Source: a virus
Taxonomy: Duplodnaviria > Heunggongvirae > Uroviricota > Caudoviricetes
Strand: one strand, 5' to 3'
DNA: 40,320 bases
Virus record (IMG/VR): IMGVR_UViG_2698536428_000017
Position numbers and translations under genes: made by a program. A model generated the notes under the pieces. The model saw only the letters and a program-made list of their open reading frames with translations, did not search any database and had not been told where the DNA came from. Numbering within the stretch: position 1 is the stretch's first letter; each line of letters opens with the position of its first letter. Below, one piece after another: positions 25,308 to 29,675 of this stretch.

Positions 25308-25448
25308 ATTTAAGTCTCCACTTTCGTCTATAGCGCAAATTTATACGAAAACGGATTACTCAGCAATACAGCAATTCTATGTCATCCTAGATTAAAATAT
25401 CCGATAACGCATAATCACCGTCCCTGTATACAACATGGATGAATCCAA
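25308..25448. promoter_or_regulatory. Immunity switch region with divergent promoters and operators
   Basis: 141 bp between divergent Cro-like and CI-like genes; candidate leftward -10 TATAAA (25345..25340); motifs ATAGCGCAAAT and ATAACGCATAAT; operators not resolved. Confidence 0.45.
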
Positions 25449-26123
25449 ATGATTGATACTACCGATATCCTTTCTCAAAACATCAAGTACCTGATGGACA
25501 AAGCCAAGATAAGCTCGATAACTGAGCTGGCACGTCGGTTACAGCTGAACCAACCAACGCTACACAGGCTGGTATCAGGAGAGGTGAAAGATCCGAAATA
25601 CGCAACGTTAAAGCAGATCGCCGACTACTTCCACGTGTCACCAATAGACTTGGCAGAAAGGAGCCTTCAAGAAATGGAGAAAGAGGACGCGACAGGTATA
25701 AAAACGTATATTTCTCTTAGGTTTAATAAAGTACCTGTTTTGGGAAACACTCAGCTAGGCGTTGGAGGACTTTGGAGCGACACCCAATATTCAGTAGGTA
25801 GCAGTGATGGTTTCATATACTGGCCGACAAAGGATGAAGATGCATACGCCCTGAAATGTGTTGGTGATTCAATGATGCCTAGAATCAAAGAGGGGGAGTT
25901 CGTAATCGTCGAACCCAACCACGACTACACTCCTGGTGATGAAGTACTTGTGGTTACCCGGGAAGGTGAGGTCATGGTTAAAACCTTCTTGTTCGAACGC
26001 GATGGCCTGTTCCATCTAATGTCTGTAAATGAAGATCATCCACCAGTCAGAGTACCACGCGAAAACATTGAAAAAATCCATTACGTGGCGGGGATCGCCA
26101 AATCCGCGCTACGTATGTACTAA
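25449..26123 (+). CDS. CI-like repressor (N-terminal HTH, C-terminal S24 LexA-like peptidase)
   Basis: 224 aa; HTH region (SITELARRLQLNQPTLHRLVSG); S24 catalytic motifs GDSM and downstream Lys (VMVKTF). Confidence 0.8.
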   Translation: MIDTTDILSQNIKYLMDKAKISSITELARRLQLNQPTLHRLVSGEVKDPKYATLKQIADYFHVSPIDLAERSLQEMEKEDATGIKTYISLRFNKVPVLGNTQLGVGGLWSDTQYSVGSSDGFIYWPTKDEDAYALKCVGDSMMPRIKEGEFVIVEPNHDYTPGDEVLVVTREGEVMVKTFLFERDGLFHLMSVNEDHPPVRVPRENIEKIHYVAGIAKSALRMY

Positions 26124-26153
26124 CCTTTACAGTCTGATAACTTACTTCTGATC

Positions 26154-26185
26154 AAACCGCTCTCCACAAGGGCGGTTTTCTTATT
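26154..26185 (+). terminator. Candidate terminator after the repressor gene
   Basis: AAACCGC...GCGGTTT 7-bp stem followed by TTCTTATTT; the loop is long (11 nt), so weak. Confidence 0.35.
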
Positions 26186-26206
26186 TGCAAAATAATTCAT
26201 TTTCGT

Positions 26207-26235
26207 ATTGACACAAAATCCCATAACGCATATAA
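26207..26235 (+). promoter_or_regulatory. Near-consensus sigma70 promoter (TTGACA-17-TATAAA)
   Basis: TTGACA at 26207..26212, 17 nt spacer, TATAAA at 26230..26235; followed by palindrome CGCATAATTAATGCG at 26244..26258. Confidence 0.4.
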
Positions 26236-26429
26236 ATACGATATCGCATAATTAATGCGTTTTTTAATACTGGCTCTTTAACAAACTGAACCGCGTGACA
26301 GGTAAGCCGCAGTACTCCTGGCAAAACGAAATAGCACCCGATGGGATCGAGGTAAGCGCCGAGTCCGTATGCGTACGGTAAGCGTAGAGGACAACACCGC
26401 GACAAACTGATAAGTCACGCAAGTTGAAA

Positions 26430-26460
26430 CGCCCCGACGATGGGGCGCTTAGTTCCTTTT
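26430..26460. terminator. Hairpin CGCCCC-GACGAT-GGGGCG with U-rich flanks
   Basis: 6-bp GC stem; U-rich sequence on both strands; probably the ancestral terminator of the 174-aa gene, now separated from it by IS2. Confidence 0.4.
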
Positions 26461-26613
26461 GGGGTGGGGTGAAGATCAGTCCATTGAGTCAATCCGAAGT
26501 TCAGCATCTACCACTACACCACTAGACTGGCCCCCTGAATCTCCAGACAACCAGTATCACTTATTTAAGTGATAGTCTTAATACTAGTTTTTAGACTAGT
26601 CATTGGAGAACAG

Positions 26614-26979
26614 ATGATTGATGTCTTAGGGCCGGAGAAACGCAGACGGCGTACCACACAGGAAAAGATCGCAATTGTTCAGCAGAGCTTTGAACCGGGG
26701 ATGACGGTCTCCCTCGTTGCCCGGCAACATGGTGTAGCAGCCAGCCAGTTATTTCTCTGGCGTAAGCAATACCAGGAAGGAAGTCTTACTGCTGTCGCCG
26801 CCGGAGAACAGGTTGTTCCTGCCTCTGAACTTGCTGCCGCCATGAAGCAGATTAAAGAACTCCAGCGCCTGCTCGGCAAGAAAACGATGGAAAATGAACT
26901 CCTCAAAGAAGCCGTTGAATATGGACGGGCAAAAAAGTGGATAGCGCACGCGCCCTTATTGCCCGGGGATGGGGAGTAA
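26614..26979 (+). CDS. insC: IS2 transposase OrfA (InsC)
   Basis: Translation [41 protein letters not shown]... matches IS2 InsC; true ATG at 26614 (track ORF begins upstream). Confidence 0.9.
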
Positions 26980-27842
26980 GCTTAGTCAGCCGTTGTCTCC
27001 GGGTGTCGCGTGCGCAGTTGCACGTCATTCTCAGACGAACCGATGACTGGATGGATGGCCGCCGCAGTCGTCACACTGATGATACGGATGTGCTTCTCCG
27101 TATACACCATGTTATCGGAGAGCTGCCCACGTATGGTTATCGTCGGGTATGGGCGCTGCTTCGCAGACAGGCAGAACTTGATGGTATGCCTGCGATCAAT
27201 GCCAAACGTGTTTACCGGATCATGCGCCAGAATGCGCTGTTGCTTGAGCGAAAACCTGCTGTACCGCCATCGAAACGGGCACATACAGGCAGAGTGGCCG
27301 TGAAAGAAAGCAATCAGCGATGGTGCTCTGACGGGTTCGAGTTCTGCTGTGATAACGGAGAGAGACTGCGTGTCACGTTCGCGCTGGACTGCTGTGATCG
27401 TGAGGCACTGCACTGGGCGGTCACTACCGGCGGCTTCAACAGTGAAACAGTACAGGACGTCATGCTGGGAGCGGTGGAACGCCGCTTCGGCAACGATCTT
27501 CCGTCGTCTCCAGTGGAGTGGCTGACGGATAATGGTTCATGCTACCGGGCTAATGAAACACGCCAGTTCGCCCGGATGTTGGGACTTGAACCGAAGAACA
27601 CGGCGGTGCGGAGTCCGGAGAGTAACGGAATAGCAGAGAGCTTCGTGAAAACGATAAAGCGTGACTACATCAGTATCATGCCCAAACCAGACGGGTTAAC
27701 GGCAGCAAAGAACTTTGCAGAGGCGTTCGAGCATTATAACGAATGGCATCCGCATAGTGCGCTGGGTTATCGCTCGCCACGGGAATATCTGCGGCAGCGG
27801 GCTTGTAATGGGTTAAGTGATAACAGATGTCTGGAAATATAG
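26937..27842 (+). CDS. insD: IS2 transposase OrfB (InsD), DDE catalytic domain
   Basis: 301 aa matching IS2 InsD as recalled; overlaps insC in -1 frame, A6G slippery run present. Confidence 0.9.
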
Positions 27843-27877
27843 GGGCAAATCCAACCACCACCAAAGAGAACTGCTAA

Positions 27878-28402
27878 TCATCTGGCAGGTTGTAACGGTG
27901 CAGGAGTTTTGCCACTGACTTCTATATTTCGGGGAAATTTATATTCAGCGGAGCATTTATGACACTTGAGAATTTTATAAGCGGCATTAGAAGTATGGTA
28001 TTGAAGTATAGACTTCATACCCGACTCATAGCATGTAGTACAAAGATAATGAGGCTTGAACTCAGGATCGTCAGTAGGCTTCAGTACATAGACCACCGTA
28101 TTGGTAATCGGGTGGTACATTTCATAGTTCATTTTCTCACTATCCCAATCCTGTTTCTTTTCCAGAAGGGATTCGAGTTCAACAATGCGCTGTTTAGCTT
28201 CGTTCAAAAGCTCCGTTAGTGCGAATTGTCCAGTACGCGCATCAATTAGTTTATCAAGTAGATCGATAGTTTTACTTTTAACATTGTAATCCACCTGCAA
28301 CGCATTAACTTCTTTTGCTAAATCAACAGCACCTTTCAAAGCACCACCAGCACTAGTGGCCGCCTCAGTTATACGCCGTACAAGTCCTTTTTCTTCAGAC
28401 AT
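27878..28402 (-). CDS. Hypothetical coiled-coil plus zinc-ribbon protein, 174 aa
   Basis: ATG at 28402; C-terminal CxxC (CTTC) and CxxC (CHKC) pairs about 20 residues apart; about 42% GC; convergent with repressor gene. Confidence 0.6.
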   Translation of the reverse strand: MSEEKGLVRRITEAATSAGGALKGAVDLAKEVNALQVDYNVKSKTIDLLDKLIDARTGQFALTELLNEAKQRIVELESLLEKKQDWDSEKMNYEMYHPITNTVVYVLKPTDDPEFKPHYLCTTCYESGMKSILQYHTSNAAYKILKCHKCSAEYKFPRNIEVSGKTPAPLQPAR

Positions 28403-28419
28403 CTTAATTCTCTCTAAAA

Positions 28420-28470
28420 CTATAGGGGTAAAGAGATATTAGCCGAATTCTCGCTGTAGGGGTACAGAGA
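28420..28470. repeat. Two 17-bp direct repeats (CTATAGGGGTAAAGAGA / CTGTAGGGGTACAGAGA)
   Basis: 15 of 17 identical, 34 bp apart (28420..28436 and 28454..28470), in the divergent control region between the 174-aa gene and the rightward operon. Confidence 0.4.
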
Positions 28471-28541
28471 GAGCCATCTCGTCTGACGTGGTTAAAAGCA
28501 GGCATTCGCTGACATCCAAGTAATTGCTGTGTGTAGCCTTT

Positions 28542-28567
28542 GCCCGCCTCAAGTGACGGGCTTTTTT
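28542..28567 (+). terminator. Intrinsic terminator or attenuator upstream of the replication operon
   Basis: GCCCG...CGGGC stem (28542..28546 / 28557..28561) followed by T6 (28562..28567) on plus strand. Confidence 0.45.
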
Positions 28568-28626
28568 ATGTCTGAAAGCGCACTCGCAACAGCGTGCTCC
28601 CCGATATGAAAAAAGGAATACAACCG

Positions 28627-28776
28627 ATGAAACCTGAATACCTCCATCGACTGACGGGGCGCGATGTTCTCCGTTATCGCCGTAAAAACTTCGATTTGAT
28701 GACCGGTCTGGCCGTTGCCACTGCGCTCGGTCTGATCATCACTTTCATTCTCCTTGTAGCGAGGACCACAGTATGA
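28627..28776 (+). CDS. Small membrane protein, about 49 aa
   Basis: ATG at 28627 with AAAGGAA RBS (track ORF begins at an upstream GTG); C-terminal TM helix; stop overlaps next start (ATGA). Confidence 0.35.
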   Translation: MKPEYLHRLTGRDVLRYRRKNFDLMTGLAVATALGLIITFILLVARTTV

Positions 28777-29675
28777 GTTTAGAAACCAGTCTCGAACTTA
28801 ATAATCAACTTCTGGCACAACATAATGCGCTGCTTGAACGTCTTATCCGCACAATGGCATCAGGCATTGTTATGCATCCTGACACGATTTCACGAGTGCA
28901 GGAATGTCGGGATACAGCAACTGAAACTGAAAATATGTCAGCGGCAATGACACTGGATGATCTGGAGTTCAGCGACGTTATCGCACTGGCTGGTTTCTAC
29001 CCGGTAGCCACCCCTATCACAGAAGACATGCTGCAACGTGCTGTTGCCTACCGTGATGCTGAAGGCGATAAACGAGTAGTTCAGATTGATGCTCTCGACA
29101 GCGCATTGCAGGGCGTCAAACGAGCCAGGGCGCTGCTTAAACCTGCTCTCCTGGACCTGTCCCGTAACATCCTTAAGTTCTGGGACGACCTGCCAACCAT
29201 CGGCGAGCGACGTGTTTTTGCCGAGCAGCTACTTGATGCACCTGCGGATGGGCGTGATGAAGTTAAGCCGAAAAAGGCCAGTAACAAAGATGGAGAACGC
29301 ACGGGGCCGTTTTACGTCAAAAATGTATCCGGCACAGCAGCCAGTGAACTCCACACCTTACGCAAGTTGAACGAGATGCTGAAAAAAGGCCATATCGAGA
29401 TCAACCGTGTTGAGTACCTTCAGCTGCAAGAAGAATTTGCACGCAGAGACGCAGCAAATTCCAGCCAGAATCATGACGCCAAAGATGACCATACAATTGA
29501 TTTCGCGGCACTACGCAAACAAGCTGAAGGGTTGATCCTCCAGTTAGCAAAAGGGGGTTACCGGGCAGAAGCTATTGCAATTCTGGAAAAACAGGGAGCC
29601 AGGAAACTTGGTGAAGTAACGGATGAAAATCTCGCTGAAGTAATCACCCTGGCTGAAAAAGCACTGGAGGGTTAA
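28773..29675 (+). CDS. Hypothetical protein, 300 aa
   Basis: ATG with GAGGA RBS; normal GC; no family recognised. Confidence 0.55.

Follow-up and report, generated by a model that had tools for sequence, protein, structure and literature searches.

The 40,320-nucleotide viral record IMGVR_UViG_2698536428_000017 (Caudoviricetes; hereafter the window) contains a myovirus-type temperate phage, integrated as a prophage beside yfhL, in which a complete copy of the insertion sequence (IS) IS2 occupies positions 26523-27853. Direct reading of the window gives the element a length of 1331 bp, places its transposase on the + strand and finds it bounded on both sides by the pentamer ACCAC (26518-26522 and 27854-27858), a sequence that relatives of the prophage without IS2 hold only once at the empty site. 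The insertion is real, derived, rare and confined to one narrow Escherichia coli lineage. Within this lineage it is common by descent to at least three sequenced isolates, is evolutionarily recent and is not a one-off of a single culture. As laid out below, the insertion appears to lie in the transcription unit of the early replication operon, behind a conserved leader that opens with a boxA antitermination signal, and its effect on the phage is probably mild or neutral.

Junctions and identity of the inserted IS2

For the comparison with empty sites, IS2 and one ACCAC were removed in silico, and the resulting 1200-bp query was searched in 5426 complete E. coli genomes. The empty site was found over these 1200 bp at 100% identity in 18 genomes and at an identity of at least 99.6% in 26, the matches including O103:H2 12009, the enterotoxigenic strain ETEC H10407 and IAI1. 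When the two window flanks are aligned to O103:H2 12009, the two alignments share precisely 5 bp, which read ACCAC. A scan with a 23-mer from the left flank retrieved eight viral and two metagenome contigs, all with the empty site, and gave no match among the GTDB representative genomes. In total, a single ACCAC is present at 36 or more empty sites. Moving the IS2 boundaries by one base, in either direction, abolishes the repeat.

The filled left junction is present in one of the 5426 complete genomes, that of the Japanese clinical isolate JNEC-KY208, in which both junctions are seen. The prophage of this isolate equals window positions 6523-40320 but for five transitions (5/33798 bases). A further filled site is provided by a draft contig (L017; IMGVR_UViG_648276648_000012, IMG genome 648276648), whose sequence starts within IS2 and whose right junction is identical; of its 7295 bases compared, a single one departs from the window. 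IS2 is absent from the other 53 related viral loci. As the filled site is thus limited to JNEC-KY208 and one IMG draft contig, both near-identical to the window, the data identify a real insertion in a single lineage.

An earlier model-made reading of this DNA, in the following called the original prediction, had described a bona fide and probably recent transposition between the repressor gene and a convergent gene, flanked by ACCAC on both sides, and had proposed a comparison with IS-free relatives. The flanks are borne out by direct reading and by independent assemblies, and the transposition itself by the direct repeat together with the IS-free counterparts, of which there are many, each with a single ACCAC. 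The word recent holds in the evolutionary sense; the event is not brand new, the three records differing by one to five substitutions.

An assembly artefact or a chance repeat would require a misplaced IS2 copy whose ACCAC flanks are coincidental in a CCA/CAC-rich stretch. The surrounding DNA is indeed rich in ACCAC-like units (ACCACTACACCACCACCA), and most E. coli genomes hold several IS2 copies. Nevertheless, the probability of such an artefact is negligible: identical junctions recur in two independent assemblies, a complete genome and a draft contig, the flank alignments against IS-free relatives share exactly 5 bp, no repeat is left by one-base boundary shifts, and JNEC-KY208 possesses a single chromosomal IS2, so that there is no other copy to confuse. 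In its 5.02-Mb chromosome, this prophage is the sole place occupied by IS2, while the median IS2-bearing genome has four such places; IS2 as such was found in 4850 of the 5426 complete genomes. It is a possibility that the phage brought IS2 into the JNEC-KY208 chromosome.

The inserted element is a textbook IS2 of the IS3 family, in which every defining feature that can be checked in the sequence is present. The hallmarks of IS2 are imperfect left and right inverted repeats (IRL and IRR) of 42 and 41 bp, overlapping orfA and orfB reading frames and an A6G window for -1 frameshifting (PMC3299598). The window copy opens with TAGACTGGCCCCC at 26523 (first bases TAGACTGG) and closes with GGGGCAAATCCA at 27853 (last bases AAATCCA). 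In the end alignment, IRL (26523-26564, +; 42 bp) and IRR (27813-27853, +; 41 bp) pair over about 41-42 nt with one gap, and the termini are TA and CA. The first reading frame, orfA (26614-26979, +), encodes 121 amino acids (aa) with an HTH_Tnp_1 domain (Pfam) and is assigned to the IS2 repressor TnpA (NCBIfam, 239 bits; cut-off 229). The second, orfB (26937-27842, +; 301 aa), holds HTH_21, rve and rve_3 domains (Pfam) and reaches 722 bits with the NCBIfam model of IS2 TnpB (cut-off 597); the NCBIfam IS3 family model gives 278 bits against a cut-off of 160. The A6G slippery window for the programmed -1 frameshift lies at 26931-26937 (+; IS position 409), and the shift joins orfA to orfB in a stop-free OrfAB of 409 aa. 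In line with this, the IS2 copy of JNEC-KY208 carries the RefSeq annotation 'programmed frameshift'. Over its full length the element is 99.9% identical to RefSeq copies annotated 'IS3-like element IS2 family transposase'. The original prediction of a complete 1331-bp IS2 with recognisable ends and orfA/orfB is hence confirmed by sequence identity, end alignment, Pfam and NCBIfam alike.

Transposition of IS2 proceeds through figure-of-eight and minicircle intermediates with a junction promoter, Pjunc, and a weak promoter, PIRL, is located within IRL, just inside of which OrfA binds (PMC3299598). The sequence prerequisites for the minicircle route are present in the window copy, namely intact ends, a -35 element in IRR and TAGACT in IRL. 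The arrangement is best explained by a single insertion of a standard IS2, copied out and pasted in via a minicircle, into ACCAC, with duplication of the target.

Independent IS2 copies in two further loci (L004 and L005) have identical start and end bases and their own 5-bp repeats, AACAC and ACCCG. A left boundary lying further to the left, as might be read from a 21-bp flank extension in some BLAST matches, was rejected because those copies start at TAGACTGG with duplications of their own and because the 21 bp are phage DNA at empty sites. The left flanks of independent insertions are nonetheless alike, the stretches compared being 26502-26522 here, L004 1601-1620 and L005 1605-1621; they read CAGCATCTACCACTACACCAC in the window and CAGCATCCGCACTACAACAC in ydcF. 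This likeness could reflect a target preference of IS2 or BLAST selection among thousands of sites.

The window copy differs from known IS2 in sequence-level polymorphisms only. One is a C-to-T substitution at 27714, private to the source of the window, which replaces a Leu of OrfB by Phe at a site downstream of the catalytic region; JNEC-KY208 and the draft contig both have C at this position, and the change is likewise missing from the best-matching IS2 copies elsewhere. Another is a minority variant of the left end (26554-26568, IS2 positions 32-46) with G at position 32 and CACTTATTTAAGTG replacing CACTTAAATAAGTG. The two versions differ by reverse complementation of the central 4 nt, at a site within the region that the literature assigns to OrfA binding. 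A 300-bp query across the left junction (150 bp of phage DNA plus the first 150 bp of IS2) returned 274 records at an identity of at least 99% and 6473 at 95-99%.

Early promoter, boxA leader and variable slot

Left of the insertion, a - strand Cro-like gene is followed by the gene of the prophage repressor (25449-26123, +), a protein of 224 aa with HTH and Peptidase_S24 domains (Pfam) and thus of the cI/LexA type, and then by the repressor's own terminator (26154-26178, terminator scan). The immunity module is common to four isolated phages, vB_EcoM-606R2 and relatives. Downstream of the repressor lies an early rightward promoter (26208-26236, +) of the form TTGACA-17-TATAAA, which agrees with the consensus at 11 of 12 positions and is the sole near-consensus promoter of the region. 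To the right of IS2, the first genes of the rightward operon encode proteins of 49 and 300 aa (28627-29675, +) and are followed by those for DUF2800, DUF2815, DNA polymerase and helicase; directly upstream of this operon (28403-28626), the + strand holds no promoter match of 8/12 or better.

Exact matches to a 15-nt motif, ATCC[GC]ATAACGCATA, are found between cI and cro (25399-25413) and at 26218-26232; a third copy lies at 26236-26250. Two of the copies overlap the 26208 promoter, in its spacer and its -10 element. Allowing up to three mismatches, seven occurrences are found in the window where 2.0 are expected. The copies are probably operators of the repressor, and the promoter would accordingly be repressor-controlled. 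Owing to the operator-like motif, its location downstream of cI and its direction away from cI, we liken it to lambda PL, the repressor control being part of what we infer here. At the predicted transcription start, the terminator scan flagged a palindrome, CGCATAATTAATGCG, followed by T6 (26245-26265, +); an operator or an attenuator are possible roles for it.

Some 30 nt beyond its predicted start (~26243), the transcript would enter a boxA, GCTCTTTAACAA (26273-26284), which is the single perfect occurrence of this sequence in the window. It is identical to 12 consecutive nt of the E. coli rrn boxA-spacer ugcucuuuaacaauuua (PMC2724277, Table 1). This boxA opens a conserved leader of 175 nt (26273-26447, +) that ends with the hairpin CGCCCC-GACGAT-GGGGCG (26430-26447). 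For comparison, we used 54 loci around homologues of the 300-aa protein (63-100% identity). Of these, 28 keep the leader, even some in which the repressor is only ~26% identical, and at least three repressor types are combined with it. It always opens with boxA and closes at the last base of the hairpin, and boxA is invariant across 18 leader variants. Among the 49 loci with enough upstream sequence, 27 have boxA on the + strand and none has it on the - strand. The leader occurs in 104 of the 5426 complete E. coli genomes (~2%) and, among phage records, only in the four vB_EcoM isolates. The whole window is without Rfam matches at gathering thresholds, and a permissive Rfam scan of 26100-26560 gave chance-level hits only. 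A stem CAGG...CCTG follows boxA, and RNAalifold together with pair counting yields a long-range helix, GCGTGAC/GTCACGC, with 98.4% paired cells. We regard the boxA as solid and the fold of the leader as tentative, and propose this so far unannotated leader as a candidate for processive antitermination in the early replication operon.

The insertion sits 75 bp downstream of this leader and upstream of the replication operon, where it disrupts no open reading frame (ORF). Its target lies within the 3' untranslated tail of a gene for a 174-aa protein (27878-28402, -), antisense to the early transcription unit. The distance to the TGA stop of this gene (27878-27880) is 24 nt from the right end of IS2 and 19 nt from the duplication, in agreement with the roughly 20 bp given in the original prediction. 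The 174-aa protein has a coiled-coil-like N-terminus and a C-terminal CxxC...CxxC pattern; it falls into phrog_1244, of the function-unknown class, as its sole match, with no significant family in Pfam, PADLOC or NCBIfam. As a neighbour of IS2 this gene is present here as had been described, but in relatives it is only one occupant of a variable slot extending from the leader to the 49-aa gene. The slot contains either the antisense 174-aa gene, a 45%-identical 189-aa allele, a + strand 69-aa ORF or another + strand 174-aa ORF, and in other phages with the same repressor the 174-aa gene is replaced by the 189-aa allele or by unrelated + strand ORFs. In three loci (L022, L032 and L018) the slot ORF is on the + strand and hence co-directional with the promoter. 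In L064 the slot is empty, and promoter, boxA leader and the ATG of the 49-aa gene follow one another within ~280 nt; the corresponding stretches measure 279 nt in L061 and 355 nt in L068. Because the leader abuts the 49-aa gene in L064, the 26208 promoter and the leader appear to belong to the rightward replication operon, with IS2 inside its transcription unit and co-directional with it. The earlier statement that IS2 stands between the strong promoter and all that lies further right agrees with these comparative data and proved to be the most pertinent of the original remarks.

The 49-aa gene is immediately preceded by a hairpin GCCCG...CGGGC followed by T6 (28542-28567, +), which is kept in all relatives with a variable loop; no recognisable promoter lies between it and the 49-aa ATG. 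This hairpin could either be a terminator that has to be overcome or mark where the slot genes end. Just upstream of the ribosome-binding site of the 49-aa gene, a second stem (~28575-28600) covaries (GCGCAC/GCGTGC versus AACGCA/TGCGTT).

The hairpin at the end of the leader calls for separate consideration. In IS-free phages it lies 81 bp past the stop of the 174-aa gene, and IS2 cuts the mRNA of this gene off from it, as had been noted. Its designation as a terminator stands less well: the hairpin was not reported by the terminator scan, its - strand tail is only TTTCAACTT, and its + strand tail, CTTAGTTCCTTTT here, is not T-rich in many relatives. It is plausible as a putative terminator for leftward transcripts only. 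One could nevertheless suppose that the 26208 promoter makes a separate non-coding RNA of ~200 nt which ends at this hairpin, and that the operon has a promoter of its own which escaped recognition. The insertion would then affect only the 3' end of the 174-aa mRNA, which would lose its terminator and a stabilising hairpin, and IS2 would otherwise be neutral. Such a module-like unit is suggested by the homology with phages of the 189-aa allele, which breaks at 26459, just past the hairpin and its T-rich tail, by the TTT after the hairpin on the - strand and by the conserved hairpin with T6 ahead of the 49-aa gene. We consider a separate small RNA unlikely, however, as the leader abuts the 49-aa gene in L064, L061 and L068 and leaves no room for a separate unit, as the hairpin has no T-run in many relatives, and as boxA is a co-transcriptional antitermination signal that would be unexpected in a short terminated RNA; moreover, there is no match to an Rfam family.

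Expected effect on the prophage

In a lysogen, the early promoter would be repressed and IS2 would be silent, at little or no cost. Upon induction, the early transcript would have an additional 1.3 kb of IS2 to cross. In this case the polymerase would probably have been modified at boxA by host Nus factors, which would render the polarity of the insertion partial rather than absolute. It is known that boxA shields long untranslated transcripts from Rho (PMC7665894). Partial polarity is expected because a boxA-modified polymerase resists Rho on long untranslated RNA, because orfA and orfB of IS2 are co-directional and translatable, and because the terminator scan detected no terminator-like site on the + strand inside IS2. 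Concomitantly, the 174-aa mRNA would now enter IRR instead of the hairpin, and its 3' end and stability could change. Taken together, an effect that is mild or neutral is the probable outcome, whereby both the Nus-dependent antitermination and the size of the polar effect are what we infer from the arrangement of these elements.

Several points weigh against such an antitermination-based view. Antitermination by an rrn-type boxA is documented mainly against Rho and is not known to defeat intrinsic terminators efficiently. The conserved hairpin with T6 stands just before the 49-aa gene, so that another promoter or factor may be involved. Since 22 of the 49 related loci manage without boxA, a universal role of boxA in the family was rejected. 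Neither an N-like protein nor a clear boxB was identified, and because no N-like ORF lies between leader and operon we did not file the leader as a lambda nut site. The fold of the leader is backed by three compensatory pairs only, all from one lineage, and the single-sequence fold of 26244-26475 (z = +0.85) is no better than those of shuffled sequences. Finally, the gal and lambda literature of the 1970s established that IS2 can be strongly polar in one orientation.

An alternative view is that the insertion is strongly polar, with early rightward transcription blocked, no replication or lytic cycle, and a grounded prophage retained by the host lineage. The classical gal and lambda insertions of IS2 were discovered through their polarity. 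In the window, IS2 parts the operon from the only near-consensus rightward promoter, the DNA upstream of the 49-aa gene holds no further convincing promoter on the + strand, and the insertion is stably inherited in three records. Strong polarity is, however, argued against by a co-directional, translatable transposase, by a + strand of IS2 in which no intrinsic terminator was detected and by a perfect boxA ahead of the insertion. In addition, the prophage genes around IS2 are undecayed in the JNEC-KY208 annotation, and the lone chromosomal IS2 of this isolate is easier to explain if the phage was infectious at lysogenisation. We thus hold a strongly polar insertion to be rather unlikely. That the chromosome of JNEC-KY208 has no other IS2 also hints that the IS2-bearing phage was infectious on its arrival there. 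A far-reaching version would combine an IS2-bearing prophage that is still a functional temperate phage, boxA antitermination through the insertion, an SOS-coupled burst of IS2 transposase and the phage as the vehicle of the only chromosomal IS2 of JNEC-KY208; on induction, the derepressed early promoter would then read directly into orfA/orfAB. This combination, taken as a whole, appears quite unlikely.

The right end of IS2 was also considered as a source of new transcription. The -35 element of IRR can feed outward fusion promoters (PMC9330008), and the spacer rule derived from Pjunc is 17 bp (PMC3299598). Here, the candidate outward -35 element TGGAAA (27832-27837) faces ACCACC, CCACCA and CACCAC at 16-18 bp in the flank. 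A fusion promoter at the right junction was rejected, there being no -10-like hexamer at these spacings.

Further genes of the prophage encode a VapE-type primase, a family A DNA polymerase, DUF2800 and DUF2815 proteins, a DEAD-box helicase and a Q antiterminator. Pseudogene flags are absent from the JNEC-KY208 prophage genes over 20 kb on each side, and a tRNA/tmRNA scan gave no match. Deletions or rearrangements are seen in some family members: the 300-aa gene of L069 lacks 460 bp internally (5297/5298), and in L065 (2066-2378) DNA of the tail-fibre region is fused to a truncated 300-aa gene. An IS insertion as the cause of these truncated genes was rejected, both being plain deletions or rearrangements; decay in this prophage family usually occurs by deletion rather than by IS insertion.

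Significance and relation to known systems

The element found here is already known, a new IS2 insertion site is routine, and host IS elements in intergenic prophage DNA are commonplace. The junction is of use as a clean lineage marker (one of 5426 complete genomes). Furthermore, the IS2-filled prophage and the many 100%-identical IS-free prophages, such as those of O103:H2 12009, ETEC H10407 and 2011C-4251, form a natural pair and hence a ready-made test of tolerance, which could show whether a 1.3-kb insert in the boxA-equipped leader of an early phage operon is tolerated. The unannotated boxA leader is of wider interest for the control of early transcription in this prophage family.

With the IS2 of E. 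coli (insC/insD, OrfA/OrfAB) the window copy shares its length, its ends, the frameshift, the DDE (rve) transposase and the 5-bp duplication. The leader resembles the rrn leader, the boxA of lambda nut and the boxA upstream of CRISPR arrays, in that a sense-strand boxA follows a strong promoter at a distance of ~30 nt and precedes a long untranslated stretch. It differs from these in having no recognisable boxB or boxC and in being part of a phage-specific 175-nt leader that may form a long-range helix and closes with a GC hairpin. The classical polar IS2 insertions of the gal operon and the lambda early region are alike in that IS2 is located in an operon leader after a repressor-controlled early promoter, with boxA upstream. 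In those cases polarity is relieved by N-modified transcription. In contrast, no N protein or boxB was found here, and the boxA is of the rrn and not of the lambda type. A parallel in terms of setting is found in pathogenic E. coli, whose Stx and lambdoid prophages harbour elements such as IS629 and IS1203; there, too, a host IS occupies intergenic DNA of a prophage that otherwise looks intact, and serves as the mark of one lineage. In contrast to those cases, the element here is IS2, its carrier is a yfhL-integrated, myovirus-like phage, and the insertion is a single event in the family.

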